From Chiloscyllium plagiosum (lineage: Eukaryota): a stretch of DNA of 64,000 nt. The translations under genes and the position numbers were made by a program. Location: the NCBI RefSeq assembly GCF_004010195.1, contig NC_057719.1:22283174-22347173 (forward strand), in the 5' to 3' direction. The notes beneath the pieces were generated by a model. That model saw only the letters and a list, made by a program, of their open reading frames with translations. It ran no database searches and had not been told where the DNA came from. This document shows, piece by piece, positions 256 to 61,689 of this stretch (within the stretch, counting starts at the first letter, position 1; every line of letters begins with the position of its first letter).

Positions 256-307
256 CGGATGCTGCCTGAATTGCTGTGCTTTTCCAGCACCACTCTAATC
301 CAGAATC
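256..307 (+). mobile_element. PLE terminal-repeat fragment (family A), inverted relative to the adjacent RT
   Basis: cggatgctgcctgaattgctgtgcttttccagcaccactctaatccagaatc matches the family A copies at 36030-36075 and 61516-61565. Confidence 0.8.
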
Positions 308-501
308 CTTTCCAGAACATTACCTGGATCTCTGGATTAACAGTCCAGCTGTAATACCACCTCTCACTAATATATTCACAAGAATATGTCAATGCAGTTT
401 TAACAAAATAACGTTAATATTAATTACACACAAAAGGAAAATAAAAGTCTACACTACATAAGAACAATTTGCAATGTTTTCCTTGCAAGTTTCAACAATA
501 T

Positions 502-820
502 GGGTGGCATGGTGGTTCAGTGGTTGGCACTGCTGCCTCACAGTGCTCGGGACTCAGGTTCAATTCCTGCCTCACATGACTGTGTGGAGTTTGCATGTTC
601 TCCCTGTGTCTACATGAGTTTCCTCCAGGTACTCTGGTTTCCACCCACAATCCAGAGATATACAGGTCAGGTAAATTGGCCATGCTAAATTGCCCATAGT
701 GTTAGGTGCATTAGTCAGGTGTAAGTATAGGGTAGGGGTCTGGTGGGTTACTCTTCAAAGGGTCGGTGTGGACTTGTTGGGCTGAAAGGCCTGTTCCCAT
801 ATTGTAGTGAATCTAATCTA
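502..820 (+). mobile_element. HE1-type tRNA-derived SINE (V-SINE group)
   Basis: A box (tggttcagtgg), B box (ggttcaattcc), central tgtgtggagtttgcatgttctccctgtgtct block, (aatct)n tail. At least six similar copies occur in the window. Confidence 0.85.
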
Positions 821-1814
821 AAGATTAAATCTTTCTACCTTCAACAACAACCTGACAGTTCAGTAAAAGCTCAATCTGTTTCTCTTCCAAAGTTCCTTGT
901 TTATTAGTCATAGCTGCACTAGGCGTCTTTCTGACAAATGCCAACAGTCATTTGATATTAACATCTTTAGTTAATGTCTCTTCATGAGGCCCTTAACTGC
1001 CAACACATCTCATTTACTTCTTAGTAGGATTTCCTTAAATTCAGGCATTCTGTATGAGCTGTATATGTTGACGTATTCTCATTCTGGAACTTTTCTCTTA
1101 CTAACTATTAAGCCACTTTGGCCTTATTTTATTCTACTCTGAAGGTTTTGGAGAGTGCTAATCTGCACCGCTGATGCTACAAGTTTATTCCTCCATAAAT
1201 AACTGTTATTTTGTGAAAGAAACCCTGTGCACTCACTGACCTTCTGGGTGGTTCTTCTTATATAAATTAATCAGTTTCTGTCTCCTTCTGCTGCTAGACA
1301 GCTTCTTGCCAGACAGCAGCCCACATGTTCTCCTCTTCTCTTCTAACCTTGACTTTGAAAGCACTAAACAATTTACTTCAAGTGTTTTCTAAAGATCTTA
1401 TTTCAATGCATGTACACAAATGACCAGATAATCCTGCGTTACTCAAAAATGGAGCAAAATCTATGCCCTCCAATCCTCAACAAGTATAATATAGAAATAT
1501 AAATCAATTTAAAGCTACACATAGGTTTGTCAACTTTAGAAGCAAAGTTTTAAATGATGATAATATATAGTGAACCTTCAGTGCATTGGCCAAGTTTGGT
1601 ATGATGTAATTACGGGGTTATAAATTCCGAGATATTTCTACAGGTGTTTTATGTGCTGGGGAATAATTGATTGTTGGACATTTGAGTTTCCTGGGTTAAA
1701 ACAGATCCCAGAACTTAATAGAGTCAAAAAATGTTGATCTGATCTAAACTCAATTGACAATTCTTGCTGTTGAAAACAAGTTCTTCATGATGAGTTGCCA
1801 CCATTAGTAAGTCC

Positions 1815-2443
1815 CACCGGTATGAGATTCTTGCTCCCTATACAGATGAGGAAAAGGGCTCTGGACAGGATGAGCCAGCTGACTATGGCACCATGGTGCA
1901 GAAGGCCATTCAAGAGGGGGGAGCAAAAAGACAAGTAGTTGTAATAGGGGATTCTATAATTAGGGGGACAGATAGTATCCTTTGCAAGCCGGAATGGGAG
2001 TCTCGCATGGTGTGTTGCCTACCCGGTGCCAGGGGTCGGGAAATCTCTGGCCGGCTTGAAAGGATATTGGAGCGGGAGGGGAGGATCCAGTTGTTGTGGT
2101 CCACGTTGGGACTAACAACATAGGCAAGACTAGGGTGGAGGACCTGTTTGGGGATTATCAAGCACTAGGAAGGAAATTGAAGTACAGGTCCTCAAGGGTC
2201 ATAATCTCCGGATTACTGCCCGAGCCACGTGCCAATTGGCATAGGGATAAGAAAATTAGGGAAGTAAACACGTGGCTAAGGGATTGGTGTGGGAAAGAGG
2301 GATTCCACTTCATGGGGCATTGGCATCAGTTTTGGAACCGGGGGGATCTGTACCGTTGGGACGGTCTCCACCTGAACCGATCAGGTACCAATGTTCTAGC
2401 GAAGAGGATAAATAGGGTGGTCAGTAGGACTTTAAACTTCTGA
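1815..2443 (+). pseudogene. CR1 ORF1 C-terminal part, SGNH/GDSL esterase domain; 1-bp frameshift near 2080
   Basis: SGNH blocks VVVIGDSIIRG, CCLPGA, VHVGTNNI and DGLHLN are split between track ORFs 1893..2123 and 2096..2443. Confidence 0.9.
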
Positions 2444-2460
2444 GTTGGGGGGAAGGGAAA

Positions 2461-5296
2461 GTGAAAGCGACAGGGAGTATGGAGGTAAATGGCAAGATAA
2501 GCAGCAGGATAGCATGTTTCCAGGCAGATTTAAAATTGAGGCAGACTGAGAATACAGTAAAAAGCAAGGATAACTTAGGACATATGACTTCCAACATCTC
2601 TAATGATAAGGAAGTTAGCATTAAGGCACTTTACCTGAATGCTCGTAGCATACATAACAAAGCCGATGAACTAATGGCACAGATAATAGTGAATAATTAT
2701 GATGTAGTAGGCATCACAGAGACTTGGTTACAGGGGGATCAGGACTGGCAGTTAAACCTCCATGGTTTTTCAACTTATCGAAAAGACAGAGAGGTGGGCA
2801 AAGGGGGTGGGGTTGCCTTGTTAGTTAAGAACAAAATTAAATCTATGGTATTGAATGACATAGCCTCGGATGATGTGGAGTCTGTGTGGGTGGAATTGAG
2901 GAACCACAAAGGCAAAAAAAACAGAATTGGAGTTGTGTATAGACCTCCTAACAGTGGTCAGGACCAGGGACACAACATGTACCGGGAAATAGAGAAGGCA
3001 TGTCAGAAAGGCAAGGTTACATTGATCATGGGAGACTTCAATATGCAGGTGGACTGGGTAAATAATGTTGCTAGCGGATCTAAAGAAAGGGAATTCATGG
3101 AATGCTTACAGGATGGATTTTTGGAACAGCTTGTCATGGAGCCCACAAGAGAGCAGGCTATTCTGGACCTAATGCTTTGCAATGAACCAGACTCTATAAA
3201 AGATCTTAAAGTAAGGGAACCCTTAGGAAGTAGCGACCATAATATGATAGAGTTCAGTCTGGAGTTTGAAAGGGAGAAGGCAAAATCGGATGTAATGGTG
3301 TTACAGTTGAATAAAGGTAATTATGAGGGCATGAGAGAGGAACTGACTAAAATAGACTGGAAGCAGAGGCTAACCGGGAAGACAGCAGAGCAAAAATGGC
3401 AGGAGTTTGTAGGTATAATTGAGGACACTGTACAGAGGTTCATTCCCAAGAAAAGAAAGATTAACCGGGGAGGGATTAGACAACCTTGGCTGACAAAGGA
3501 AGTCAGGAAATGTATTAAAGAAAAAGAGAGATCCTATAAAGTGGCTAAGAACAGTGGGAAATCAAAAGATTGGGAAGGATACAAAAGCAAACAGAGGATA
3601 ACAAAGAGTGTAATAAGAAATAAGAGGATCAAATATGAAGGTAGGCTAGCCAATAATATTAGAAATAATAGTAAAAGTTTCTTTCAGTACATAAGAAACA
3701 AACGACAGGCAAAAGTAGACATTGGGCCACTTCAAACTGATGCAGGAAGCCTAGTGATGGGAGATAAGGAAATAGCAGGAGAACTTAACAAGTACTTTGC
3801 ATCAGTTTTCACAGTGGAAGACATGAGCAATATCCCAAAAATTAAAGGGTGTCACGGGGCTGAATTGAGTATGGTTGCCATTACGAAAGAGATAGTGCTA
3901 GAAAAATTAAAAAGTCTTAAAATTGATAAATCTCCTGGCCCCGATGGGATACACCCTAGAGTTCTGAGAGAGGTGGCTGAGGAAATAGCAGAGGCATTGG
4001 TTGAGATCTTTCAAGAGTCACTGGAGTCAGGAAAGGTCCCGGATGATTGGAAGATGGCTGTTGTAACCCCCTTGTACAAGAAAGGATCAAGGCAAAAGAT
4101 GGAAAATTATAGGCCAACCAGCTTAACCTCGGTTGTTGGTAAAATTCTAGAATCCATCATTAAGGATGAGGTTTCTAAATTCTTGGAAGAGCAGAGTCTG
4201 ATTAGAACAAAACAACATGGATTTAGTAAAGGGAGGTCATGCCTGACAAACCTGTTGGAATTTTTTGAAGAGGTAACAAGTAGGTTAGACCAGGGAAACC
4301 CAGTGGATGTGGTATATCTAGACTTTCAAAAGGCCTTTGATAAGGTGCCACACGGGAGGCTGCTGAGCAAGGTGAGGGCCCATGGTGTTCGAGGTGAGCT
4401 GCTGGGATGGACTGAGGATTGGCTGTCTAACAGAAGGCAGAGAGTTGGGATAAAAGGTTCTCTTTCAGAATGGCAGCCGGTGACGAGAGGTGTCCCGCAG
4501 GGTTCGGTGCTGGGGCCACAGCTGTTCGCAATATATATTAATGATTTGGATGAGGGAACCGGGGGAATTCTAGCGAAGTTTGCCGATGATACAAAGTTAG
4601 GTGGACAGGCAGGTAGTACTGAGGAAGTGGGGAGGCTACAGAAGGATCTAGACAGGTGGGGAGAGTGGTCCAGGAAATGGCTGATGGAATTTAACGTGAG
4701 CAAGTGCGAGGTCTTGCACTTTGGCAAAAAGAATAAAAACATAGACTACTTTCTAAAATGGTGAGAAAATTAATAAAGCCAAAGCACAAAGGGATCTGGG
4801 AGTGCTAGTCCAGGATTCTCTAAAGGTAAACATGCAGGTTGAGCCCGTGATTAAGAAAGCGAATGCAATGTTGTCTCTTATCTCAAGAGGGTTGGAATAT
4901 AAAAGCAGAGATGTACTACTAAGACTTTATAAAGCTCTGGTTAGGCCACATTTGGAGTACTGTGTCCAGTTTTGGTCCCCACACCTCAGGAAGGACATAC
5001 TGGCACAGGAACGTGTCCAGCGGAGATTCACACGGATGATCCCTGGAATGACAGGTCTAACATATGAGGAACGGCTGAGGAAACTGGGATTGTATTCGTT
5101 GGAGTTTAAAAGATTAAGGGGAGACTTAATAGAGACGCACAAAATAATACATGGCTTGGAAAAGGTGGATGCTAGGAAATTGTTTCAGTTAAACGAGGAG
5201 ACTAGGACCCGTGGACACAGCCTTAGAATTAGAGGGGGTCATTTCAGAACAGAAATGCGGAGACATTTCTTCAGCCAGAGAGTGGTGGGCCTGTGA
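2461..5296 (+). pseudogene. CR1 ORF2: AP-endonuclease plus reverse transcriptase; frameshift near 4758, premature TGA at 5294
   Basis: APE motifs LYLNARS, GITETW, IMGDFN, LDLML, SDHN. RT motifs KSPGPDG, NYRPTSLTS, QHGF, YLDFQKAFDKV, GVPQGSVLGP, KFADDTK. C-terminus LYKALVRPHLEYCVQFW lies in ORF 4802..5296. Confidence 0.95.
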
Positions 5297-5484
5297 AATT
5301 CATTGCCACAAAGTGCAGTGGAGGCTGGGACGCTAAATGTCTTCAAGGCAGAAATTGATAAATTCTTGATGTCACAAGGAATTAAGGGCTACGGGGAGAA
5401 TGCAGGTAAGTGGAGTTGAAATGTCCATCAGCCATGATTGAATGGCGGAATGGACTCGATGGGCCAAATGGCCTTACTTCCACT

Positions 5485-5712
5485 CCTATGTCTTATGGTC
5501 TTATGGTCTTATATTCCAGTCATGCTCTTTAGTTTTAGCCATCATTGCATTAGCATCAACAATGCACAGAATCCAGGAATACTTCCTGCAATGCTCGCCC
5601 TATGTCTTATGGTCTTATGGTCTTATATTCCAGTCATGCTCTTTAGTTTTAGCCATCATTGCATTAGCATCAACAATGCACAGAATCCAGGAATACTTCC
5701 TGCAATGCTCGC
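5485..5712. repeat. Tandem duplication, 2 x 114 bp, spanning the CR1 tail and its 3' flank
   Basis: cctatgtcttatgg...tgcaatgctcgc at 5485-5598 and 5599-5712; also visible as a 38-aa repeat in the ORF track. Confidence 0.95.
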
Positions 5713-6117
5713 TTTATGCTGTAGGAACAGGTTCACACTGGTGGATAAACCAAATAGTAGTGTCTGGAAGCAATGTCCTCTGAATGTGTTCTGAAGATCG
5801 CGTGTTCTTGAGATTCCTCGACCAAGTGAACCAACAATACATATGTCTGGTCTTAGTTGGTGAAAAAAAAAACCTCCTGTGAATTTGGAATTCAGTTCCT
5901 CGAATTGTTGGAATTTATCTGATTATGTCTTTAGATCAAGATTTATGTTGTGGGTCCAAGCATGCCTGGATTTTTCTATGCATTTTCACTTCACATATGA
6001 TAGTTTTGTGTCTTATGGTGCACATATATATAATGCTTTGATGATCCCTGCCACCTTCTTCATCCTTAAGCTGGATGTACAGAATATACTTTCCAGGACA
6101 GTTGATTGAAGGAAGAT

Positions 6118-6375
6118 TAAGACCATAAGATCCTAATAAATAGGAACAGGAGTTGGCTATTTGGTCCCTCCAGCCTGCTCAACCATTCAATAGGATCATA
6201 GTTGATTTGACATTCCTTGCATGCACTTTCTTCTTGATTCTTGTACTGATCAAGAACCTATCTATCTCTGCCTTACATGTACACAAGGACTCTGTCATAA
6301 AGCTCTCTGTGGCAAGAAATTTCAAAGACTCACAACCCTCTGGTAGAAGAAGTTCCTTCTTGTCTCAATCTTAAC
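6118..6375 (-). mobile_element. Old CR1 3'-end fragment
   Basis: Begins with the reverse-complement tail gaccataaga, followed by CR1 3' UTR-like sequence. Confidence 0.7.
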
Positions 6376-6420
6376 TACTACAGTACTTTCCTAAGAGTCA
6401 AATTGGTCTAGTACATCTGT

Positions 6421-6540
6421 GCTGAAAATGTGTTGCTGGAAAAGCGCAGCAGGTCAGGCAGCATGCTGCCTGACCTGCTGCGCTTTTCCAGCAACACATT
6501 TTCAGCTCTGATCTCCAGCATCTGCAGACCTCACTTTCTC
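6421..6540 (+). mobile_element. Short PLE-derived insertion (family A) with perfect 86-bp palindrome and 14-bp TSD
   Basis: Palindrome at 6421-6506; TSD ctagtacatctgtg at 6408-6421 and 6541-6554. Confidence 0.9.
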
Positions 6541-8263
6541 CTAGTACATCTGTGGGCAGACATAGATAGATTCAATGAGAACTATTCATGGCTTTGCTTC
6601 ACTGAAATTGGTATTGGTAGTCTCATGAATGGTAACAATATTGAGCTCTGCATATGCCAATAATGCTGCAGTTTTTGGTGTGCTCATCCTTACCAAGTAA
6701 AATGCTTCAGTTTGTCATTCAGACTTGCCATACCTTCATTTCAATGTCAGTGCATTCTGAAAGAACGGATGTCGCATTATTCACAGTTAATTTGGGTTGT
6801 ATTGTTGACTTCCAATAATCTAGATACAACTCCTGTCAGGATTCTGATTGGTAAGATGTTTGCACTTGCTCCCTTGTTGACTTTGGTTAGGATTCCATGT
6901 TGCTGTTTTTCTTCAACATATGCAGCTATAATTAGCAAAAGATTCCAAAAGTTCAATTTTGTCTGTACAGTATGCTATATTTGTACTGTGGAAAGGCCTG
7001 TTTGCTTTCTCAGATCTTCACTCTGGTCTGTCTTGCTATTAGCATCATGTATTGGTTTTTACAAAAGTCTCTAAGCGCTCCCTATCACTGCTGCAGTACG
7101 CTGCAGAAAGTTTGGTTATACATCTGGAATCAGATTCCTTGTATAGCTGAACCCAATGCTCTTTTACACCAATCACTCCCCATGTGGCTCATTTACTTTC
7201 TGCATCCTGGCTATTACACCAGTACCAGTAGCTGCATCTAGCGCTTGCAGATGTTGCTGTTCAGCCACAAAGACTGAATATTTTCTGCTTTATCTTATTA
7301 GTCTGTCAATTACGAGGCCATTCTTTCACTCCATGAGCTTTTTAAACTCTTTGATCAGCACTGAAGCTATAGCCAGCTCTGTTATCCCTTTAGAAAGCTG
7401 ATCATCATGTTGTGATTCTGTGTTTGCTTACACAAATTTACTAATCTCACAGCAGACTTGACTGCTGTTTATTTGAAGATATGGTACAGGAATGATCTGC
7501 AGGGAGACTTGTTATGAAGAATCAACAACTATTATTGTATGAAGGCAGAGTTGCAGTAGCTCTAAGCAAGACTGTTCAATGGCAGCCAGTCACATCCAGG
7601 ATATTTGCTCAATAGCATGTCACCCCTGAAAGTAATATCACAATACCCTACACTTTCTCAACAATGTGCATGCACAAATTTCTCAGCCTTTGTGTTGCCT
7701 GGCATAGCGTTGATCCTGTACAATCTTTGGTAGGAAACCTGACAGAGTTATGGACAGGAAAACTGTAAACATTGTCAATTGTATAAAGCCAAACTGTGGC
7801 TGGCTGCTTAGTTGTCCACTTTTGAAAATCAAAACCGATATCTTCCTGGGGCTATACTGTCATAATTCAATACTTTGTGATCTTCATTTTACTCAGTTTG
7901 GCTTTGTACATGCATTATTCCTTTTAAAATGACATTAAGGTCAAGACAATAATATCTCTGAAACCTTCTGGTACATCTTCAATGAAAGTTGCAAAAGAGA
8001 GATTTGCAGAAGGATTGCAAACACTAGAGCAATAATAACAGTAACCATGGTGATGTATCTATATTAAGTCACTGGGAAAGGCACCTCATTAATTTGTGAC
8101 ATAACACAACATGATCAATACATTAACCTTTTCATTCATAGCTCATTGGATAACTCAGTAACAATGACGCTATAATGGAATTAAAGCAAAATCAAATAAT
8201 ATCGTAAGACGTAAGAGGAAATCGTGTTTCACTAATGTAATTTTAAAAATATTTTTCTGTGTC

Positions 8264-9032
8264 TGTGATGAAGCTGCTCCTTTAACAAGGTTATGCCATC
8301 CTTGGCTTTTCTTTTCAGAGAGGTCGTAAATGACACAGACAGCAAAAACCCTGAAGGTGTTGACTTTTAGGGTCAATGTGATAATAGGTAACGATGCTGT
8401 TTTTGGCAGAAGTCTTTCAAGTTTAAAAAAAAAACAATGAAAGGGGAGTGGGCAGTTCTCCAAGCTCAGTTTGTCTCTGGTTTAGTTTGTTTTTTAGCAT
8501 TTGTGTGGAAAAACCTGCTGGTCCAAAGAAGCAGGTCAAGGCTGGTACTCTCTCTCTGACTTCTCTCCTGTGAGAACCCGTGTTTGCTTTTACCTTTTGT
8601 GCCAAGGGATATTTATGGGAATTGTTGCAAGTATTTGGAACAGCATCAATACGTTGGTATGATCTGTTGGGTTTTCGGATAGGATAAATTATTCAGTAGT
8701 GTGGTGCTGGAAAAGCACAGCAGGTCAAGCAGCAAGTGAGGAGCAGGATGCTGCCTGACCTGCTGTGCTTTTGCAGCACCACACTCTCGACTCTAATCTC
8801 CAGCATCGGCAGTCCTTATTTTCACCTAAGTTATTTAGTATTCTGTTCTCTTTTGATTGCATTTTATTTGGTTATCTTGTAAATAGATTTTGCTTTGTTT
8901 AAAACTAAGTGGGTTGACCAGCTGTATCCCTCCTGGAATATCCGTGTTACACCTGCTTAATACAACGAGCAAAGTTAGGGCTTGGACTACTTTGCTGGAA
9001 TGTTTAGAGATGGTCTGGCCTGGTCCATAACA
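8264..9032 (+). mobile_element. Candidate solo LTR
   Basis: Begins tgtgatg and ends cataaca (imperfect TG..CA inverted termini), about 640 bp once the PLE insert is removed. No convincing TSD. Confidence 0.45.
8699..8826 (+). mobile_element. Short PLE-derived insertion (family A) with fold-back arm
   Basis: Inverted arms gtgtggtgctggaaaagcacagcaggtca / tgacctgctgtgcttttgcagcaccacac; TSD taaattattcagta (8685-8698) versus taagttatttagta (8827-8840). Confidence 0.85.
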
Positions 9033-10174: not shown

Positions 10175-10612
10175 ATAAATCTAGGGATGAACGGGCCTCA
10201 CACGAGGAGCAATTGAATAGCATGGGCTTGCACTCGCTGGAGTTGCCGTTTGTGCTTATGCTTGAAGTGTCGATTCTCCTGCTCCTCGGATGCTGCCTGA
10301 CCTGCTGCGCATTTCCAGCACCACACTCTTCTACTCTGATCTCCAGCATCTGCAGTCCTCGCTTTCTCCATTGAGTGAGAGGAGGCAGGTTCAAAACTGA
10401 AAGGAGGAAAAACTATTTCTCTCAGAAGTTTGTGAATCTTTGGAACTCACTGCCCCAGAGTGAAGCAAAATCAGAACAACAGATTCAACAAAGAAATAGA
10501 TATGTTGCTGAAGAAAAGCAGGACAGAAAGCAATGGGAAGCAGACGAGAAACTGGAGCAGAGATCAGGATAAGAGCAGACATAATCATGCTAAATAACAG
10601 GGTGGTTTTGAG
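10175..10612 (+). mobile_element. Old CR1 3' fragment, interrupted by a PLE insertion and a Rex/Babar LINE; resumes at about 12811-12856
   Basis: RGGRFKTERRKNYFSQKFVNLWNSLPQ is the CR1 ORF2 C-terminus. Confidence 0.8.
10253..10369 (+). mobile_element. Short PLE-derived insertion (family A), 5'-truncated within the ribozyme
   Basis: gtcgattctcctgctcctcggatgctgcctgacctgctg...ctgcagtcctcgctttctcc, with the same 3' end as the other family A copies. Confidence 0.85.
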
Positions 10613-35797: not shown

Positions 35798-36218
35798 ATT
35801 TAGCACTGCTGCTTCATGGCACCAGGGATCCAGGTTCGATTCCAGCCTCAGGCAACTGTGTGGAGTTTGCGCATTCTGTGTAGGTTTCCACCGGGTGCTC
35901 TGGCAGTCCAAAGATGTGTGGACTTGCTTGATTGGTCACATTTAATTGCCCCATAGTGTCCAGAGATGTGCAGGCTAGCTTCATTCCTGATGAAGTGCTT
36001 TTGCCCAAAACGTCGATTTTCCTGCCCCTCACATGCTGCCTGACCTGTTGTGCTTTTCCAGCACCACTCTAATCTAGATTAGCCATAGTAAATGCGAGAT
36101 TACAGATATAGGGTGGGGAAGAGGGTCTGGGTGGGTGCTCTTCAGAGGGTCAGTGCAGACTCGATGGGCTAATGGCTTCTTTCTGCACTGTAGGAATTCT
36201 ATGATTCTATGATTCTAT
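35798..36218 (+). mobile_element. HE1-related SINE with a nested family A PLE insertion
   Basis: ttagcactgctgc..caggttcgattcc..tgtgtggagtttgc; tail (ttctatga)n. Confidence 0.8.
35980..36078 (+). mobile_element. Short PLE-derived insertion (family A) with a mutated hammerhead motif
   Basis: ctgatga-agtgc-tttt-gccc-aaaacgtc at 35987-36014; GAAA changed to AAAA. Confidence 0.85.
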
Positions 36219-37300: not shown

Positions 37301-37329
37301 AAAAAAAGCAATGCATGAAAACAATGCAT

Positions 37330-38834: not shown

Positions 38835-39023
38835 GTCAAGTGTGTAATGCTGGAAAAGCACAACAGTCAGGCACAACAGGAAAGGCTGATCAAAATTCCT
38901 GATGAAGGGCTTATGCCTGAAACGTCGATTCTCCTGTTCCTCGGATACTGCCTGACCTGCTGTGCTCTTCCAACACTGCACTCTCGACTCTGATCTCCAG
39001 CATCTGCAGTCCTCGCTTTCTGT
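38835..39023 (+). mobile_element. Short PLE-derived insertion (family A) with inverted 5' arm and 17-bp TSD
   Basis: TSD ttgagtaacatatcaga (38818-38834) versus ttgattaacatatcaga (39024-39040). Confidence 0.9.
38899..38926 (+). ncRNA. Minimal type I hammerhead ribozyme motif, core intact
   Basis: CTGATGA-A-GGGC-TTAT-GCCT-GAAAC-GTC. Confidence 0.75.
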
Positions 39024-39727: not shown

Positions 39728-39920
39728 CACTGATCCAGCTCCCTCAGACCCAGCTGTCAGAGTGAACCAAACCCCTGACACTCCTGTTCATTTTTTCTTT
39801 TTTTTTAAATTTTCCCCAAACAACCGTCTAACTGAGGAAAATTAAAAAAAGAAAAAATGAACAGGAGTGTCAGGGGTTCTGTTCACTCTGACAGCTTGCT
39901 CTGAGGGACCTTGATCAGTG
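39728..39920. repeat. Inverted duplication (arms about 85 bp, loop about 20 nt) of an LTR/Tx1-tail junction
   Basis: cactgatc...cccctgacactcctgttcattttttc..ttttcc / ggaaaa..gaaaaaatgaacaggagtgtcagggg...gatcagtg. Confidence 0.9.
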
Positions 39921-40620: not shown

Positions 40621-41139
40621 CCCTCCCAGGTCCAGGAAGATCAGATTTAACCTGATGTGGAATCTTCTCCCCATTAGCAATGTTGGAGCTATCCTGCGTT
40701 TGTATAAAGTGTGGACCAATAATCAAACAGGAACAGGGACAGTTTGGTATCTAGCGAAGATGTAGGCTGTTTCTTTAAGCCTGCCTTCAAAGTTTGGACT
40801 GTTCTTTCTGCCAGACCATTGGACAATATGTGGCATGAAGCTGTCCTTGTATATGAAATACCATTCAATTTCAGGAAATACTCAAATTCTCTGCTGGTAA
40901 ACAATGGCCAATAGCAACACTTCTGCAAGTCTGTGCGTTGCAAAGATGTGTGCAGTTTTTCTATCGTCATCATTGTGTTTGACGCATGAACTCTTTGCAC
41001 ATCCAGCCACTTTGTCGTCCTTAATCACTAAGAACATTGAGCCCATGAAATGACCAGCATAGTCAACATGTAGTGAGTCCAGTGTTTACCCAGCCATTCT
41101 CACGAATGTGAGGGAGTGGCTAGCAGTAATTCTTTAAAG

Positions 41140-41260
41140 GAGAAAGTGAGGACTGCAGATGCTGGAGATCAGAGCTGAAAATGTGTTGCTGGAAAAGCGC
41201 AGCAGGTCAGGCAGCATCCAAGGAGCAGAAGAATCGACATTTCGGGCATGAGCCCTTCTC
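41140..41260 (-). mobile_element. Short PLE-derived insertion (family A) with perfect 16-bp TSD
   Basis: TSD cagtaattctttaaag at 41124-41139 and 41261-41276; 5' end truncated inside the hammerhead core. Confidence 0.92.
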
Positions 41261-42052
41261 CAGTAATTCTTTAAAGACTGGTCTGCAAATGCCAAAACAG
41301 CTGCACCAATCTCGACCTCCATTAGAACCAGCTGACTATTTAAACAGACGTTTATTTTGATTCGTTCTGATTTGGATGTTGTTAAGCAATTTAATTGTTC
41401 CAAACCAGCTGTAGGTGAACTTTCCAGGGTATGCACTTTCCTAGATACTGGAATATAAGCTCTCTTACGCAATTTAGATCAAGTGGAATTCTTTTACTCT
41501 CCCAAGTCAGCATACCGACAGCAACTACAATGGCTTACCAGCCAGAATACTGAAGAAAACTGTAATTATTTGTCTTAGGCTTGGCTATGTTTTGGGGTTT
41601 TGTTGTGGGCTGACCTAGAGTCCCTCTATTCAGGGTATGTCTGAGTGAGGTTACGTAATTGTCTTCACTCCAATTGCGTTCCCCAAGCTCAGTCGGATTT
41701 GCAGGTGTATCTACTTCCGTCAATACATGTGTGCTCCACTTGCCACATTTTCCAATGATAAAGCCATTGTAGTGTTTGAAATCCAGTTAGCCTTCAGCTA
41801 TTGGGTGCTTTTTCATGGTTGCATCATTAATCCCACATACCAAACAATCTCTCAGCATCTCATTAAGGGTAGCCCAAAGTCTCATGTCTCTGCCAGTCAT
41901 CTTACTCTAGTCAAAAATCCTGATAAGCCTCCCCTGGTTCTCAAATTGGCAAATTAAAGCCAATTGTGTCTCAGAATTAGAGGAGGCTTAGTGCCATAAT
42001 ATTCCTTAAGTAAATCTGTCAACTCTTGAAATGTTTTAGTATATTGTGCCTC

Positions 42053-43679: not shown

Positions 43680-43924
43680 TACTTGATTTTATTAGTCAAG
43701 GTTTAAAGCATAGAGTCCAGCAGCAGGTATGTTATGCTGGAACTCTATAAAATGTTGGCTATGCCATAACTAGACTGTTGTGTGCAGTCGTGGAATTCCC
43801 ATGCTAGAAGGGATGTGATAGCACTCGAGATGATGCAGAATTGATTAATGAAAATGCTACCTGGGCTGGACAGCTTTAGTTGTAAAGAGATATTGGAGAG
43901 ACTGAGGCTGTTATCCTGACAGGA

Positions 43925-44195
43925 AAGTTACAAATCACACTACACCAGGTTATGGTCCAACAGATTTATTTGATTTCATCAGGTAATCTAGGTTGGTTCG
44001 ATATATCGTATCAGTTGCATGACATTATGATCCTTTGCTATAAATTCTGTGTCTTATTAGCTTGCTCCACACTTAACCTGATGAAGGAGCAGTGCTCTGA
44101 AAGCTTGTACTGCCAAATAAACCTGTTGGACTATAACCTGGCGTTGTGTGATCTTTAACTTTGTCCACCTCAGTCCAACAGCAGCATCTCCACGT
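43925..44195 (+). mobile_element. Short PLE-derived insertion (family B) with inverted 5' arm and hammerhead motif
   Basis: Arms aatcacactacaccaggttatggtccaacag / ctgttggactataacctggcgttgtgtgat; CTGATGA-A-GGAGC-AGT-GCTCT-GAAA-GCTT at 44078-44106. Confidence 0.85.
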
Positions 44196-44321: not shown

Positions 44322-44490
44322 GACAGGCTCATGACACCAGGTTATAGTCCAGAAAGTTTATTTGAAACACAGGCTTTGGAAATGTCGCTCCTTCATCAGG
44401 TGATTTCAAGTAAACTTATTGGACTATAACCTGGTGTCGTGTGACTTCTGACTTTGTCCACCCCAGTCCAACACCAGCACCTCCACATCT
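44322..44490 (+). mobile_element. Short PLE-derived insertion (family B), fold-back, 11-bp TSD
   Basis: TSD tacggatcata (44311-44321) versus taaggatcata (44491-44501); minus-strand ctgatgaaggagc in the inverted arm. Confidence 0.8.
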
Positions 44491-44775
44491 TAAGGATCAT
44501 ACATTCAGAGGAGAAGTCAGGAAAACGTTTTCACCAGAGGCTGATGGGAACCTAGAACTCGCTGCCTGTAATTGGGGTACAGGCAAAAACCCTCAGAACA
44601 TTTACAAAGTATTGCGAAGTACACTTGCAATGCCAAGAGACACAAGGCTATGAGCCAAGAGCTGGAAAAGGGATGAGAATAGTTATGCGATTGTTTTTGA
44701 CTGGTGGCAGTGTAGATGGGCTGAAGGGCTTTTTTTGTACTGTAGAGTTCTATAACTCTACTATACTAAAAGGGG

Positions 44776-44868
44776 GAGTTATTCCTGATGAAGGGCTTTT
44801 GCCCGAAACGTCTTCCAGCACCACTGATCCAGAATCTGGTTTCCAGCATCTGCAGTCATTGTTTTTAC
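44776..44868 (+). mobile_element. Short PLE-derived insertion (family A), 15-bp TSD, intact hammerhead core
   Basis: TSD ctatactaaaagggg at 44761-44775 and 44869-44883; CTGATGA-A-GGGC-TTTT-GCCC-GAAAC-GTC at 44785-44812. Confidence 0.92.
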
Positions 44869-46749
44869 CTATACTAAAAGGGGCCAATTCAGGATTACTT
44901 CCCATCATTGTGGACATTTTGCCAACATTGGGAGAACCAACAGCTAGATGGTGAGGTGTAACTGTATTGCCAGGTGATACTGGCAAGTTGTCAGCAGATC
45001 CTGGGAGGGATGCCCTCATTTATGGGTACAATATTACCCACAGACGCTAGACTGTCCTTGTGGCAATGGTGCCACTGATGCACAGTGATAACATCCCACT
45101 CCCAAACAATTGCAGGGGCCTAGCTCCTGGCACCGGAATTCTCTAACCTCACTCTCTTACTTTCGAGAGTGTCTGATATGTGGCACCTTCTCTGTGCAGC
45201 ACATACCCAGTAATGGCGGTCTCTAATGGTGGTCTCTAATGGTGGCACTAATGCATCTGCTCAGGACAGACTGCAGTCCTCAATGAAACAGGAGCCATAG
45301 TGTCAGTCTCTCAATTGGCCACTTCTGGCAATAAATCTCCCTGGGTCTTCTTAATAGCAAACCCCATTCCACTCAGCTGACTGAACCTGACAATTTGTCA
45401 TTTGTAATTTGACAAGTAGTTGGTTAGTGGTTTTCTAAAGCTAAATCATATATTCAGACATCTCTTCAACACTCTCTCAGCCATCGGACCACCTTCTCCT
45501 TAACCCGCCTTTACTACTGGAATTTGAAAAAAAACTAGAGGATTTGTGTGTGTTTTACAGTGACAATTGGGAGAATGCCCATTCACAGCCCATGAATCAA
45601 ATTCTAGTCACAGAAAGCACTGGTTACAAAGCTGCTCGGTTTTATAGCCAAGATTTCATCAGTGAGCTGACAGTTGATTATGCAGAGAAACAAGAATTCT
45701 CCCATTCTATTTCTTTTGTCAAAAGAATTTTGGGCACAGTCTCTAAATGTGACGCAAAACAGCCAGTTGCCTCTATTCAGATTCATAAAAGAGCTTCAGT
45801 ACTTTGCATCTCCGTCCAGGTAAACTGATTGCAATCTGTGAGATTTCAGATAGGCCAGTCATGAAATTCAAACAGTAATTGTGGCAAGCTCTGTCAAAAT
45901 GTCCAGTCCCCTATCAGCACTTCTGCCACAAAATAAACAAGCCACTCATTAAGAATTGTTCATGCATTATTTTCTGTGCATAATCATTTGGCCGCGGTAG
46001 TTTCCAGCTGCTTCTTTTCCTGAAAGCAGAATTTCCCTTGGACGTGCAAATTTTTGAAGAACAAAGGCCACCTTGCCCATCTGGCTCATGTTGCTGTTCA
46101 GGTCGATGTTCAGGACCATGTTCTTCTCATTTGTTGCTTGGCACGGAGCCTATATGCTTTGGTTCTATGTTGGAACAGGGAGAGACTAATTTCTTTTCAG
46201 AATGCTTGAACTAGATCCCCATTCACTCTGCCTGAAAAGTACAGCGGGTCTATTTTGCAGCATAGATACTCAAGACTGTTTTTTACTTAACTGAGAATCA
46301 CAGCCTGAATTTTCCATTGGTCAGACAGTCGTGATTCCAGAGTAGATGGGATTTGCAAATGGGGACCTGCAGATTCTCCATCATAGCTCACTCAGAAGGG
46401 ATTGCGTGGGAAGTTAAACTTTCTGCTGAGGAATTCCATTTGACCAGGAACATTCCAAAGTTCTCCATTTAGTTCAAAGGTCTTGGAGAGTTTCAATGAA
46501 ATTAAGTCAGTAATTACTCAAGAAAAGTTACTCATTATTTAGTTGACCCCGTACTCAGATCACACACTCCCCACTCCGTTTGACCAAGATCCTGACATAA
46601 ATCCCGTACCTGATCCTACTGTCCCCCACCTCCATCACTGAACCCAACCAAGCCAGACCTCACTCAAATCCAACTGGCCCTGACACAATACCCACCATGG
46701 GACTTGATCACCTTCTATTCGAACAGACCAGGCGTATATGACTTCAACG

Positions 46750-49600: not shown

Positions 49601-49624
49601 GTATATGATTGATATATGTAACAT

Positions 49625-51080: not shown

Positions 51081-51715
51081 CTGTTCTAAAACAGCCCCAA
51101 CAGGGTCTACAGCAAAACAAGCAATTACCATCATGTGTTTTCTCGGATGACTTGTGAAAGGAAGAGTGCAACGTCCATTTTGAATTTTCAATAATTTGGT
51201 TACAATTGGCCCTCAAGCGAGGATACTAATTATTCTGATAACAAATGGTACAAAACAAAAGACTGTCATGCTCCCAGGTAAGCAGGAATTATATTCCCTT
51301 CTTTACTTTCAACCCCTCTCTGGGTTGATAGCAATGAGGCTAATTTACAAAAATTCCAACAAAATGATTTTATGTTTTAAAAGGAGGCAATTTATTCAGG
51401 CTTCCTTGAGTTAAATAAATAGTGAATTAGTGTTTAAAATACAAGAAAATACAAGAAAATGTGACTCATATATACACACACACACAAACAAAATGTAAAT
51501 GAGAGGTGAATCCAGACAGTAAATGTTAGTCAAATACAAACCAGTCCTTGGCTTTTCTATGATGAATAGATTGTGAGGTTTTGCAGCCATTCATCAGGAT
51601 GCTTCCAGAAGCATTGGCTTAGACAGCTTGGAGGTCCTTGGTTCTATAATTAGCTGAGTGGTGTTTTTCAGTTACTTTCAACTGTGTCATTGATGACTTT
51701 GCCTATCTTCAGCAA

Positions 51716-51890
51716 TCAGAGATTTTTACCTGGAAAAACACAGCAGGTCTGGCTGCAGAGACCCTTCTTCAGAACTGGATCCATCAAGTTAACTCTGCTT
51801 TATTTCCACCAGATTCTGCCAGACCTGCTTTGTTCTTCCAGCAATTTATGTTTTGTTTCTGATTGTCAGCATCCGCAGTTATTTGATATT
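51716..51890. mobile_element. Older fold-back element related to PLE family A
   Basis: ctggaaaaacacagcaggtctggc / gccagacctgctttgttcttccag inverted arms; ends cagcatccgcagt. Confidence 0.6.
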
Positions 51891-52149: not shown

Positions 52150-53414
52150 TGTAGCATGGTAATTACTCCCTCAATGACTACCGCCCAGTGGTCCTAACTT
52201 CGGTGGTCATGAAGTGCTTTGAAAGGCTGGTCATGGCATTAATCAACTCCCCACTACTCTTCTCCCACTCCAATTTGCCTATCGGACCAACAGATCCATG
52301 TCAGATGCCATATCAGCTGCCCTTCACTCCCCCCCCGGAACAGTCATGTAAGAATGCTACTCATTGACTACAGTTCAGCCTTCAACACTATTATCCCCTT
52401 GAGCCTGATTACTAAACTTAGTGACCTCAGACTAAGCCCCACTCTCTGCAACTGGATTCTCAGTTTCACAATCAGTGAAGATTGGGGACAATATTTCATC
52501 CTCACTAACACTCAATACTGGCGCTTTCCATGGTGCATACTCAGCCCCTTACTGTACTCACTATATACCCATGACTGCATCACCAAATACCAGACTAATG
52601 CCATTTACAAGTTCGCTGATGACACCAACATAGTCGGTCAAATCTCAGATGGCAACGAAACAGACTACAGACGAAAGGTGGAAGACCTGGAAAAATAGTG
52701 CACTGAGAACAACCTAGCTCTCAATGCCAGCAAAGCCAAATAACTCATTATTGACTTACAGCTGGGTTTTACTCATGCCCCTCCACACATTAACAGAACA
52801 AAGGTGGAATGAGTGAAGAGTGTCAAGGTATTGGGAGTGGTCATCCACAACAAGCTTTCTTAGGCTCTTCATGTGGATGCACTGGTTACAAAAGCCCAAC
52901 AATGTCTCTTCTTCCTCAGGCAGCTGAGGAAATTGGCATGATGGCGAATACCCTTGGGAATTTTTATAGATGCGCAATCGAGCTCATTCTGTCTGGATGT
53001 ATCACTACCTGGTATGGCAACTGTACCATTCAAGATTGGAGACGTTTACAGAGATTGAACTCAGCCCGGACAATCACAAAAGCCAACCTTCCATCTGTAG
53101 AATCCATCTACCAGGCCCGCTGTCAAGGAAAGGCCACCAGCATTCTCAAAGAGCCATCCCACCCTAGCAATGTTTTTCTACAACCTCTACCATTGGTGAG
53201 AAGGTACAGAAGCCTGAACACATGCACCAGCCAGTTTCAAAACAGTTTCTACCCTATTGTTGTTAGAATACTGAATGGACTCACAAATTCTTAACATTCG
53301 CCTGTACCTGTGTTATTGTTTTTTGCCGTTTGCCTATTATTTACATATCTATGCTACTTAACTCTGTTATCTGCCTGCTGCTCACAAGACAAAACTTTTC
53401 ACTGTGCCTTGGTA
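52150..53414 (+). mobile_element. Rex/Babar-type LINE RT and 3' portion
   Basis: LNDYRPVVLTSVVMKCFERLV, MLLIDYSSAFNTIIP, LCNWIL, ILSPLLYSLYTHDC, YKFADDT, FYRCAIELILSGCITTWYGNC. Confidence 0.9.
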
Positions 53415-54003
53415 GCCCACAAACCCACCAAAACACTAAAATAGCAGTGAATGAAATTGAAAGACCCTATACAGACAACAAGCAAAGCTAATGTCATTTA
53501 CAAAATATGTTGCAAGAACTGTAACAAACACTGCATTGGACAAACAAGCAGAAAATTAGCCACCAGGATACATGAACATCAACTAGCCACAAAAAGACAT
53601 GACCCACTCACACTCATATCCTTACATACAGATGAGGAAGGACACCACTTCGACTGGGGCAACATACCCATCCTAGGACAAGCCAAGCAGCGACATGCAC
53701 AAGAATTCCGAAAAGCATGTCATTCCAATCAGAACTCGATCAACAAACACATTGACTTGAATCCCATCCCTGAGAAAAAGAACAGGAAATGACATCACCA
53801 CAGGTAATGACATCACCAACCCAAGGAAACCGAAACACATAAATAGAAAGCGGGGCATACAACCAGTACTTCATCCAGAGGCTCACTGATGATGTTGCCT
53901 AGTATGGTGACAAAACGTCTGAAAGCAAACCATCTAATTCAGCAAGCAAGCCTCCATCCAGAACCTCAACCTGAGCTACAAATCGTCTCAAAACTCACTA
54001 ACT
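53415..54003 (+). mobile_element. Penelope-like element 3' portion: GIY-YIG endonuclease plus terminal repeat (family C)
   Basis: NVIYKICCKNCNKHCIGQTSRKLATRIHEH...H..EEGHHFDW is a PLE GIY-YIG domain with Cys/His motif. Confidence 0.9.
53886..53919 (+). ncRNA. Hammerhead ribozyme motif, G12 mutated
   Basis: CTGATGA-T-GTTGCC-TAGTAT-GGTGAC-AAAAC-GTC. Confidence 0.65.
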
Positions 54004-54004
54004 A

Positions 54005-54688
54005 AAAGTTAATATTCAGGTGCAGTATGTAATTAAGAAGGCTAATGGAATGCTATCCTTTATTATGAGAGGACTTGAAGATGAAAAATAAAGATTTCAT
54101 GCTTCATTTATACAGACGTCAATTGGAAGGTATTTCAAACATTAGATGGAGTATTCATATCCTTGATTCAGTACAAATGCCGTTATAATATATATTTATG
54201 AAATGGATAAGGGAAATGAATATACTATTGCAAAGTCTTTGATTGATGCAAAAATAGGTGGGAAGACAAATGGGGAAGATGACAGTGAGAGTCAAATAGG
54301 TGAAATGAGCAGGAAAAAAATTGCCAGATAGAATAAATTGTGCGAAAATATGAGGTTGTGAATTTTGGCAGGATGAATGGATGACCTGAATGTTCCTTCA
54401 AAAGAGGACGACTGCAGAAAGCTGCAGCACAGAGGGATTTGATGTCCATGTTCATAAATCACAAAAAGCCTGCATTCAGATTTATCAGGTAATAGTGTAG
54501 ACAGATAGACTACTGGCATTTATTTGTAAGAGAAAAAAATATAAAAATAAGGGTGTCTTACGAAAACAATGCAAGATCGTAATTACATTGCACCGAGAAT
54601 ACTGTGAGCAATTTTGTTTTCCCTATTTAAGAAAAAATACAGTGGTCTTGGAGACAGTTCAGACCAGGTTCACTAGGTTGATTCCATG
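54005..54688 (+). mobile_element. Old CR1 fragments
   Basis: gtaattaagaaggctaatggaatgct; gagacagttcagaccaggttcactaggttgattcc. Confidence 0.6.
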
Positions 54689-54882
54689 ATGTTGAATAGT
54701 AACTGGGACTTCCTGGAGCAGATGCTCAGTCTGTCAGGGAGTGGTCTTTGTTTGAATTGGACTATGTTTTCTTTAAAAAGAATCTGGCTACTGATGCTAT
54801 AACAAGAGCATTAGAAAGCTTTCTGCTTAATCTCCCTTCTTAGCTCTTGGAATCTCAGAGAATAGATAACCAAGTAATTACT

Positions 54883-55020
54883 ATTCGGAGATGCCGGTGT
54901 TGGACTGGGGTGTACAAAGTTAAAAATCACACAACACCAGGTTATAGTCCAACAGGTTTAATTGGAAGCACACTAGCTTTCGGAGCGACGCTCCTTCATC
55001 ACCTGGTGTTGTGTGATTTT
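54883..55020 (-). mobile_element. Short PLE-derived insertion (family B), perfect 16-bp TSD, short fold-back
   Basis: TSD taaccaagtaattact at 54867-54882 and 55021-55036; minus strand TGATGA-A-GGAGC-GTC-GCTCC-GAAA-GCTA; inverted arm acctggtgttgtgtgattttt. Confidence 0.92.
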
Positions 55021-55516
55021 TAACCAAGTAATTACTGCCTTTGTTTGAATGAACCGAAAAGATGACCCTGATCAACACCTTCAGAAAATCAACCAAAAAA
55101 ACCACCATCTCTACCTGTATAAGAGCACATTATGAAAACCATTAAAGTAATCTGACTAGTTTCATTATTTTCTTTTATTTATTCTTTTAACACTGTTGTT
55201 TGTCTGTCTGTCTGTCCTATTTTGTGAATGGGTCTGAGATTAAAGGTTTTTCGGTTTATACCATAGTCCAGTTAGATTACTTTGTTGTTTAATTTTGCTC
55301 TCTCAAAGACATTGCATTATTAAACAAATTGCTCAATCTTTTGTTTAAGGTACAACTGACGTTCAGAATTGATTATTCTGGGATTAGCTATTCAAAAAGC
55401 CTGGTTAGGGACCATTGGGTTCAACATTGATGGTCTTTGAGCATTTTAATTTTACTGTGCCATGAATATAGGGGTAGAAAGGTTCATTCAGTTCAGCTGT
55501 CTGCCTTCATTTTAAG

Positions 55517-58421: not shown

Positions 58422-58689
58422 TGCACAATGCTAAACCTTCATTTATAAGTGATGTTAATGCAGACTGTACTGTTTCTGATATTTATCACATAGTTTCATT
58501 GGAAGCATAGCACAGCAGCATTTACTATCACTGTTACTCTGATGTAGAGAAATTGGAGAGCAACAGGTGTGTCAACAAGCCCAGGACCAGCAGCAACATC
58601 CAATGGATGCCAAAGAGTGGTACCCTCAATATGCGCAATAGGTACAGGAGGCCCAGACTCTGTCATCCTAAATGATATTTTCTCCAGAT

Positions 58690-59660
58690 TAGAGAGGTGC
58701 CATGTGACCTATAGTCTGAAGACATTCCAGGACATCATCACAGAACTATGCCAGCTGCTGGTTGATGGAATTATCTAATACAACCCCGGGTGGCCTTCCT
58801 GTTCAATGCAGTACATGTCCACTCTATGTTTGAAAGCCAAGTTTTGATCATGAGTCAAAGTCTCCGTAGCAACCTCCAACGGATTCTTTGGTCCTCCACA
58901 GGCCAAACCTCATGTCTGTTATTTCCAAGATCTACATCATGCAGAAGTGGCTATCCTATCCCAATGGCTATCAAGCTGATGGCTGCACTAACCTTGAAAC
59001 CACTGGTTGTTTCAAAGGATCTACTGGGGTCATGTGTGGTATCCCACAACCCTTGATACACAAATGTGTTAATGTTGTTGCCAATTTAAATCGTGTAAAA
59101 TCATGTTGCTTCTTCTCATTTCCCCGTGATGAGATTAATGCTGCAGCCCAGGCAGAACTATGTAGCTGGCTTCCCTCAGATTTAGGGCACTATAGACTAA
59201 ACACATGTCATGGTGAGAGTGCCATGTCACAATGTGGCTGACTTCCATTCCATCAATGTATAAGTCATCTATAATCATCAGTACCACATCTTAAAGTACA
59301 GGCCAGCAACCCTAGGAGATACCATAATACTTATATCCTTGAGAACTCTCATGTTCCTGCTCTGTTCCGTGAGCTGGATACCTGACAAGATGGTTAGTAG
59401 GAGATGAAGACAGCCCCCTGTAACCATGGCTGATGATTGTGTTACACAACCCATGTGTTTAAGGGTGACCATTAATACAAAACAACCCATTCTTCGACCA
59501 GGACCATTGCGAAGTAGATGATAGGCTTCCGAGATAAGGTTTCAATGTTTGAGTCAGTTTTGAGCAGATTCTTGTGGTACAGTCCACATAGAATTTACAG
59601 TATAATCGTCGCATGCTCTGTTCTGCACAACTGGAGCGGGCAAAGAGGGAATGTGATGGT
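58690..59660 (+). pseudogene. PIF/Harbinger DDE transposase fossil (HARBI1-family fold)
   Basis: Collinear motifs across frames: DIITELCQLL; PIPMAIKLMAAL/TTGCFKGSTGVMCGIPQPLIHKCV; AGFPQI*GTID*THV (59165-59209); FHSINV (59243); WLVGD..PWLM (59391); RFQCL; LWYSP..IIVACSVLHN (59611). Many stops and frameshifts. Confidence 0.85.
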
Positions 59661-61160
59661 TACTGACCAGCTGGGAGAGAAGGAGTCAGTTTTCTGAGGA
59701 GGAAGCCGAAGACATTGAGGAGAAGAAACATCACCTTCAGCAAGATAGAATGGTTCAGCACTGGGCACAGCAAGCCAGACAGAATTGAATTGATACCATT
59801 TCCAATAGATGTACATTGCAAAGTAATTTACTGAAAATAAGTTGCAGCTTGAAAGATAAATGATAATTGTCTGTTCCCAGTAGCATATGCTACTTTTATT
59901 AGCTTTGTTTTCTTTTTTTCTACTACTGAATAATAGTGAAAATTAGAAGATGTTAGGCATTGGGGAGAAGTAGCAATCCCTTCAACAGAGTTCTAAGATG
60001 GGATGCTGATGACATCTGTAAGTCCTTTCCTAACTATTTATGAAGAAGTGTCAGCTATGCCACTGATGAAGTGCCCTGAGAAGTGTTTCTTCTTGATGTT
60101 CCCTCCCACTAATTGCCCAGTGAAGGGTAGCTCCTGGCTGGCTCAGCCTGACCCAGTTGGGCTTTAAAAATGACACCAGAGGCAGGAACTCAGGAGGTCC
60201 TGGCAGTGGTGCATACCTCTGTTCTGCCTAGAAGGAAGATAAAACAAGCAGGGCATCAAGGAGGTGTAGCATATAGCCAGTGAGGTGAGTTTTAGAAAAT
60301 AGCAGAAGAAGCCTGGATCATAAAACCCTCCATGCAACTGTCAGATTTGACATTTCGCCCATTTCTGGTCAATTCAGCTCTGTGCCTCAGAAGGTGATTG
60401 AAGGGAAGGGTCATGGAATATATTTAATGCTGAGGCAAATGGATTTTTGTTAGGCATAAGATTTAAATGCTATCGGCATTTGATGGGAATGTGGTTTTCA
60501 AAACACAATCAGCCGTAAACATATTGAATTGTGGAACAGACTTGAGGTCCCAAAAAAACCTTATTCTACTCCTAATCTGTATAACTGTGTGATTGTAAAT
60601 GTCTTAATGACTCATTCTTTGACTTAGTGTCCAATGTTGTTTGATAACACTCCTATAAATCATCTCAGAATGTTTTATACGTTAGAGGTGTTGATGTATG
60701 CTGTAATGTAGGTAACTACATATTATTTACCAGAAACTGGGATAAAACCTGCAAATTTATGTTTCCAAAGTACTTTCAGAGCTTCCAGAGAATATAGAAC
60801 TGAATTTTATATTTTTGGAATACGTTTGAACTCAGGTCCCTGAGGACTATGTGATAGCCCATTGTGCCACAGGATCCATTTACCCTAAAGATGGATTACT
60901 CAAAGTCATGTTAGATTTACTACTTTTAGCTCAAAAGTCATTTTTCTCACATTGTTCATTTGTCTGCTCATGCATTAAGTAGTTGCTTTCCTCCAGTTTA
61001 TTTATTAAAATTGCACCATTTGATGTCAGTCATAAACATTTGTACAACACTCCATTGCTTCCTAAGTTGACAAAAGTGTTAAATTTTAAAACAGTTTGCA
61101 AATTAACTTTGTTTGCCGTTTGAACAATGTATGAATGCATTAAGTTCAATGCTAGCCATT

Positions 61161-61689
61161 GGGTGGCATGATGCCTCAGTGGTTAGCACTGCTGTCTCAC
61201 AGCGCCAGGCACCTGGGTTCAATTCCCACCTCAGGTGACTGTCTGTGTGGAGTTTGCACATTCTCCCTGTGTCTGCGTGGGTTTCCTCCCACAATCTGAA
61301 GATGTGCAGGCCAGGTGAATTGGCCATGATAAATTGCCCATCATGTTAGGTGAGGACTGGAGATGAGAGTCTAGACTAGACCAGTGCTGGAAAAGCACAG
61401 CAGGTCAGGCAGCATCCGAGGAGCAGGAAAATCGACGGTTGGGGCAAAAGCCCTTCATCAGGAAGCAGAGCTCTGATAAAGGGCTTTTGCCCGAAACGTC
61501 GATTTTCTTGCTCCTCGGATGCTGCCTGACCTGCTGTGCTTTTCCAGCACCGCTCTAATCTAGACCCTGTCAGGGGCATTTAGTCAGGGGGAAATGGGTC
61601 TGGGTAGGTTACTCTTCGGAGGATCAATGTGTTAATGTTGGGCCGAAGGGCCTGTTTCCACACTGTAGGGAATCTAATCTAATCTAATC
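61161..61689 (+). mobile_element. HE1-type SINE with a nested inverted PLE dimer
   Basis: HE1 head and body to about 61352, resumes at about 61568, (aatct)n tail. Confidence 0.9.
61353..61565. mobile_element. Family A PLE insertion: two inverted arms of about 93 bp, each with a hammerhead motif
   Basis: Arms 61369-61461 and 61473-61565, spacer gaagcagagct. Confidence 0.92.

Follow-up and report, generated by a model that had tools for sequence, protein, structure and literature searches.

Short hammerhead-associated inserts of a Penelope-like element in a 64-kb window of the Chiloscyllium plagiosum genome

A 64,000-nucleotide stretch of the Chiloscyllium plagiosum genome (contig NC_057719.1, positions 22,283,174 to 22,347,173 of the forward strand; hereafter the window) holds ten short inserts of one repeat, family A, many of them with arms that begin at the front edge of a minimal hammerhead ribozyme motif. 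The origin of family A in a Penelope-like element (PLE) is almost certain. We consider it somewhat better than an even chance that the short inserts, or stubs, are dead-on-arrival products of target-primed reverse transcription (TPRT), which would start at an internal site of the PLE RNA and run off at the RNA 5' end. All arm coordinates below take residue C3 of the hammerhead as +1.

Results

Family A adjoins PLE coding sequence

The PLE origin proposed in a first-pass annotation of the window is supported at its left end, where a reverse-transcriptase (RT) fragment meets a family A arm:

1..254, minus strand: 5'-truncated PLE RT fragment, with one frameshift near 170, extending past the left end of the window
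255..304, plus strand: family A arm of subfamily A2, about +43 to +92, without hammerhead and without tail

The open frames reach base 254, and the arm begins at 255 on the opposite strand, head-to-head and without spacer. A tblastn search with 129 proteins matches the minus strand at 36-173; the 1-254 frame is 63% identical over 43 amino acids to its best match, P0115, a protein with RVT_1 and GIY-YIG domains above the Pfam cut-offs, and a profile of 118 PLE proteins scores the fragment at an independent E-value (iE) of 3.2e-9. A six-frame PLE profile search of the whole window gives matches only at 6-170 and 53409-53864, and no PLE open reading frame (ORF) on the other side of the 255-304 arm. 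The Pfam scan covered 30 of the 219 longest window ORFs, and a PDB search with PLE protein returned one weak RT match.

We read the 255-304 arm as the inverted arm of an ORF-bearing insertion. The 1-304 layout is the arrangement described for PLEs, with an inverted 5'-truncated copy by the 5' end (PMC8557442), and we infer from this single junction, the far end of which lies off-window, that RT fragment and arm belong to one insertion event. A target-site duplication (TSD) would in this layout also be off-window, which accounts for its absence from this copy. An ATG at about +47, which opens a 26-codon frame in subfamily A1 copies, is not claimed as an ORF start, as the frame has a stop in two of four A2 copies.

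Ten inserts with two kinds of 3' end

Searches by blastn with six copies as queries, together with an alignment of 15 arms, recovered all nine family A copies of the first-pass annotation in place, and a further diverged copy at 51715-51890. The ten inserts amount to 1,348 bp, or 2.1% of the window (one per 6.4 kb), and the arm alignment distinguishes two subfamilies, A1 and A2. Besides the arm at 255-304, the inserts and their TSDs are:

6421..6541: palindromic insert without hammerhead; inverted arm 6421-6464 (+47..+90, without tail), forward arm 6463-6541 (+47..+125, with tail); TSD 6408-6421 / 6541-6554, 14/14, end bases common to element and TSD
8699..8826: palindromic insert; inverted arm 8699-8747 (+35..+83), forward arm 8746-8826 (+45..+122 or more, with tail); TSD 8685-8698 / 8827-8840, 12/14
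10253..10369, plus strand: solo copy, about +10..+125, 5' start within helix II, tail present
35980..36078, plus strand: solo A2 copy, -7..+92, hammerhead damaged, without tail
38835..39023: palindromic insert; inverted arm from 38835 (ends at +90, without tail), forward arm 38895-39023 (-4..+125, with tail); TSD 38818-38834 / 39024-39040, 16/17
41140..41260, minus strand: solo copy, about +4..+125, tail present; TSD 41124-41139 / 41261-41276, 16/16
44776..44868, plus strand: solo A2 copy, exact hammerhead core (C3 at 44785), variant tail; TSD 44761-44775 / 44869-44883, 15/15
51715..51890: palindromic insert, diverged, about 74-85% identity to other copies
61353..61565: palindromic A2 insert, both arms beginning at the hammerhead edge (-3 and +1)

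Instead of the single near-fixed 3' end described earlier, the arms end in two groups about 33 nt apart, at about +83..+96 for the short group and +118..+125 for the long one; a diverged arm can be aligned as far as +112. In all five palindromic inserts one arm is long and carries the tail while the other is short. The 61353 insert has the tail partly deleted on its inverted arm, and its forward arm ends at +92. Judged from sequence, the 33-nt difference is the one-sided 30-40 bp tail of PLEs. In the PAc element of Anolis, this tail is the stretch between two internal start sites of reverse transcription, the ORF starts at hammerhead stem II, reverse transcription starts 111-118 nt into the ORF, and unprocessed RNA is inserted into AT-rich targets (PMC11167929). 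The long family A end at +122..+125 is comparable with the PAc start.

Four of the five TSDs that had been called readable are clear (6421, 38835, 41140 and 44776), with scores of at least 13 that were reached by none of 389 random loci. The fifth, at 8699, matches at only 12 of 14 positions and its score is equalled by 3.3% of random loci, yet it is placed exactly at both insert edges. The end of the 41140 TSD shows microhomology to the 5' edge of the element. No TSD was found for the inserts at 256, 10253, 35980, 51715 and 61353. Five family A TSDs and one of family B (see below) have an A+T content of 60-86% (n = 6).

The inserts at 35980 and 61353 are both nested in copies of one repeat (35800-36175 and 61145-61688), which we take to be tRNA-derived and like a short interspersed element (SINE); neither has a long TSD. 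Candidate microRNA genes at 6421 and 8699 were rejected: the Rfam matches there stay under the gathering score and arise from the palindromes.

5' ends pile up at the front edge of the ribozyme

The 5' ends, earlier described as variable, are not freely so: seven of the 15 arms start at about -9..+11 and the other eight at about +35..+51. Every insert that reaches the ribozyme (6/6) stops within 20 nt of its front edge. Under a memoryless truncation model this has a probability of about 2e-7, or 4e-5 at the upper hazard, figures that come from a small sample in which very short copies would escape detection. Since the ends pile up in this way, the smooth continuum of truncations expected of ordinary debris is not seen.

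Cleavage at the scissile bond (+28/+29), or stalling at the hammerhead hairpin, predicts 5' ends at about +29, where none of the 15 arms starts; run-off at the RNA 5' end predicts the pile-up before the hammerhead that is observed. The initiator consensus of transcription is YYANWYY, and bases -6..0 match it. The match covers few bases of a pyrimidine-rich stretch and has no counterpart in family B; it is a weak hint of an RNA start near -4.

A minimal, dimer-type hammerhead

The best-preserved motif belongs to the forward arm of the 38835 insert:

38895..38930, plus strand: minimal type I hammerhead motif, C3 at 38899

It has a 4-bp helix II with a G-U pair at its base, a palindromic ACGT at 38922-38925, the scissile bond after 38926, and a helix I of 2 bp plus a U-U mismatch. 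It satisfies the whole descriptor for minimal hammerheads (CUGANGAH core, helix II, GAAA, palindromic 15.2-16.2, UH and short helix I). This full descriptor has three matches in the window, two in family A (38899 and 44785, the latter without the 3' strand of helix I) and one in family B (44078), whereas 200 dinucleotide shuffles give an average of 0.005 matches each. The motif also fits the consensus in Fig. S3 of PMC4209133, with an extra base after A9, a short helix II, palindromic 15.2-16.2 and no helix III loop. The consensus fit and the excess over shuffles support the earlier identification as a minimal, dimer-type hammerhead of the PLE kind. The accompanying claim that all copies extending far enough carry the motif was overstated: the exact CTGATGA...GAAAC core is present in two of the seven arms that reach it (38899 and 44785), and in the remaining five it has lesions or is cut within the core.

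With its 2-bp helix I and no helix III loop, the motif is not a canonical type I hammerhead with loop 1-loop 2 contacts. The computed active dimer fold has an energy of -8.1 kcal/mol, whereas the best dimer reaches -21.6 and a pair of monomers -19.0, with the core of the latter predicted to pair into an inactive hairpin. The predicted stable hairpin begins at C3 and has its 3' foot at about +29. The minimal hammerheads of the literature show weak cleavage, confined to multimers (PMC4209133), or depend on protein (PMC11167929). An Rfam search of the window gave no match to a hammerhead family, and pattern scans of viral, genome and metagenome contigs gave no matches in six of six scans.

Family A in public sequencing runs

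Family A was sought with the stretch 38874-39083 at 80% likeness in four of 24 public runs; the contigs counted are fragments, not copies. Matching contigs number 51,081 of 19.4 million in run X1 (organism A), 57,105 of 25.2 million in X11 (organism B) and 5,751 of 1.8 million in X16, which is only guessed to be RNA. In X1, 1,905 contigs diverge from the stretch at 38895-6, as do 1,842 at 39020-1, which sets a floor of about 1,900 family A loci. The high copy number suggested earlier is thus supported qualitatively; no copy number was taken from summed contig depth, which reaches 15 million.

Letter agreement among the loose ends at the front edge is 0.30-0.35, which a simulation reproduces when roughly 5-15% of contigs share upstream sequence. 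Two multi-copy contigs do run upstream of the motif, one at depth 90 for 163 nt and one at depth 362 for 92 nt. Opposite-strand joints occur at no fewer than eight places. Full head-to-tail joints are seen in 11 contigs of X1, 9 of X11 and none of X16, or fewer than 1% of the 5' junction contigs (1,905 in X1 and 1,932 in X11). Among the best-supported loose ends listed, none lies at the scissile site. Changes at core CpG positions in X1 make up 10-12% of summed depth at 38919, 38923 and 38924 and about 4% at 38926 and 38927, as for neutrally decaying copies.

Families B and C and other features of the window

A second hammerhead-bearing family and a PLE fragment lie in the same window:

43924-43972, 44074-44191, 44330-44492 and 54880-55020: family B, with a 5-bp helix II and an AGCT palindrome; TSD of the last copy 54867-54882 / 55021-55036, 16/16
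53409-54005, plus strand: family C, a 5'-truncated PLE in which part of a GIY-YIG ORF precedes a damaged minimal hammerhead at 53887

The stub, inverted-arm and tail anatomy of family B is as in family A, with arm ends near +80..85 and +114. Relatives of family C share 58-84% identity, and nearly all the named ones come from carpet sharks; protein P0001, with weak RVT_1 and GIY-YIG matches, reads through the same stretch.

Other features of the window are as follows:

2060-5296, plus strand: fairly intact CR1-like long interspersed element (LINE), with a GDSL/esterase-like ORF1 piece, a 778-aa endonuclease-RT frame and then a frameshift; Pfam RVT_1 and endonuclease matches at 2428-4761
5485-5712: 114-bp unit perfectly duplicated in tandem, perhaps an artefact of assembly
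39728-39920: 77-bp inverted arms of 92% identity with T-rich/A-rich inner parts and only sub-threshold microRNA matches; may be a small non-autonomous DNA element
39989-40417, minus strand: 142-aa open frame without Pfam match, presumably like the 3' end of a LINE RT from another clade

Discussion

How the stubs may arise

The anatomy of family A can be accounted for by TPRT from an internal start. Family A would be the pseudo-long-terminal-repeat (pLTR) end module of an endonuclease-bearing (EN+) PLE. The PLE protein would nick AT-rich DNA with a stagger of 14-17 nt, as the TSDs suggest, and reverse transcription would be primed at one of two internal sites of the PLE RNA, about 90 and 125 nt past C3. 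Two start sites would give the two 3' ends and the 33-nt tail that the copies display, an enzymatic step modelled on Anolis PAc. When the start site used is the one close to the RNA 5' end, the cDNA would run off a few bases before the hammerhead and leave a stub of 95-130 bp. A second priming would often add the head-to-head inverted arm observed in the inserts; less often a long cDNA with the ORF would be made, as at 1-304, where the junction is seen and the far end is off-window. The template would be uncleaved RNA, with the hammerhead carried as a passenger that decays neutrally in the inserted copies. Families B and C, which show the same design within the window, lend support, and family C is contiguous with a GIY-YIG ORF.

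Several observations weigh against this explanation. The eight arms that start at +35..+51 are beyond what run-off explains. The 44776 copy has an internal deletion from the scissile bond (+29; break 44812/44813) to about +69, and its beginning exactly at that bond hints at a template jump onto a cleaved RNA end, in a single case for which chance is possible. The only raw-read RNA run, X22, had no reads on the stretch (0 of 8.3 million), which is no test of where transcription starts. In Drosophila virilis an intron separates the start site from the hammerhead, which is about 125 nt further downstream (PMC2377424). In the contig data, the edge of the reference forces the pile of loose ends at 38895, which leaves only the low agreement among them as informative; long copies are undercounted, as upstream sequence that they share is merged into a small number of contigs. 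The window shows no full-length family A element: the ORF link is one junction with its far end off-window, and GIY-YIG in the same element is directly seen only for family C, whereas for family A it would be off-window. Protein searches with two of the three frames of family A translations matched no PLE protein; one frame had no match and another had three, none with a Pfam family and one of them a predicted protein that runs into a family A copy. The TSDs, finally, measure 14-17 bp, and those reported for Adineta vaga 8-10 bp (PMC3846280).

Alternative origins of the 5' pile-up

The same boundary could be produced if cDNA primed at the 3' pLTR were 5'-truncated in the ordinary way and met a strong barrier immediately upstream of the hammerhead, whether an RNA structure, a bound protein or joining driven by microhomology. 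Heavy 5' truncation is reported for PLE insertions (PMC8557442), and the 1-304 insertion and family C are also truncated, both within the ORF; the two multi-copy contigs extend upstream of the motif, and the cluster of 5' ends at about +45 indicates that sequence-dependent stops exist. We regard this course as unlikely: stalling at the hairpin from C3 to about +29 predicts the wrong boundary, and no upstream barrier was identified, though the upstream sequence is outside the window. Quite unlikely, in our estimate, is a self-propagating PLE-dependent SINE, a 130-bp unit with its own internal promoter and RT start site whose stubs are re-transcribed and copied anew. The discrete unit length with TSDs, the two visible subfamilies and the initiator match around -4 would suit it, as would the internal promoter of D. 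virilis Penelope (PMC2377424) and the finding that the pLTR sequence alone is enough for mobilisation in trans in A. vaga (PMC3846280). The A2 arm joined to ORF sequence means, however, that the subfamilies need not be ORF-less lineages; the brevity and context of the initiator match and its absence from family B count against a promoter, and the copies show CpG decay. A broader proposal, that most PLE insertions here result from a short circuit, in which internal RT initiation close to the RNA 5' end yields a fixed unit of 95-130 bp beginning at a transcription start immediately before the hammerhead, and that this unit has sufficient cis signal (internal promoter and RT start site) to be re-transcribed and re-copied as a PLE-dependent SINE-like family, is to our minds similarly doubtful.

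The first-pass annotation had left open truncated PLE insertions or a retrozyme-like family. The former fit. The latter does not, because there are no tandems and no cleavage-site 5' ends, one member is ORF-linked, and the tail is the one-sided tail of PLEs. A non-LTR retrozyme would be transcribed as tandem units, self-cleaved, circularised and reinserted, and such elements derive from PLE pLTRs and were found in the one chondrichthyan sampled (10.64898/2026.07.22.740005). The few head-to-tail joints in DNA contigs (X1 and X11) and the 44776 deletion at the scissile bond are in keeping with this origin. We nevertheless hold it to be highly improbable, as the window has no tandem copy and no circular permutation, the head-to-tail joints are rare and absent from X16, no arm starts at the cleavage site, and the motif is minimal rather than canonical, with an active dimer fold computed to be less stable than the best one.

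Relation to known elements

The family A motif resembles the minimal hammerheads of PMC4209133 in core and layout. Most of those are single motifs "probably related to truncated PLEs", and some form opposite-strand pairs 100-700 bp apart; family A motifs are likewise mostly solo. The motifs of Acropora (Neptune) and Nematostella share its 4-bp helix II, 4-nt loop and C-G-U-C end, and a 2-bp helix I, which in family A is followed by the U-U mismatch, is also found in D. virilis (PMC4209133). No cartilaginous fish appears among the rows of Fig. S3 examined. On a qualitative comparison, the density of family A looks far above the 4,000-9,000 motifs reported there for coelacanth and Xenopus.

The unit described for EN+ PLEs consists of a pLTR, an adjacent inverted 5'-truncated copy and a one-sided 30-40 bp tail (PMC8557442, PMC3846280). 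Family A matches it in its head-to-head inverted arm (five palindromic inserts, the junction at 256 and the opposite-strand contig joints), one-arm tail, AT-rich targets and ORF-bearing member, and matches Anolis PAc (PMC11167929) in a 3' end about 120 nt past the hammerhead. Besides its longer TSDs, it differs in that most inserts lack an ORF and 5' ends pile up at the hammerhead front edge. Non-LTR retrozymes (PMC7229834; 10.64898/2026.07.22.740005) are, like family A, non-coding and PLE-related, with a type I hammerhead and long TSDs, but they are arranged in tandem, in repeats of 150-450 bp, and have canonical hammerheads and circular RNAs, whereas family A is solo or head-to-head, has a minimal motif and ends at points unrelated to the cleavage site.

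Truncated PLE insertions of the stub type are already described in other animals; what is unusual here is only that so many start just before the hammerhead. A PLE expansion is reported in whale shark introns (10.1101/443036). The passages of PMC12602865 examined contain nothing on truncation or TSDs, and in literature other than subscription journals, Repbase and Dfam we found no description of shark family A or of the 5' pile-up.

Significance

These results place a shark-type genome among the hosts of minimal PLE hammerheads and demonstrate that PLE stubs can make up about 2% of a window of 64 kb. If the 5' pile-up marks the RNA start, the copies would be a natural record of PLE replication. 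They would then provide in vivo confirmation of the internal initiation that Anolis PAc shows in vitro, identify uncleaved RNA as the template, and explain why solo minimal hammerheads outnumber full PLEs to such a degree. Such a record bears on the question of what role the ribozyme plays in PLEs.

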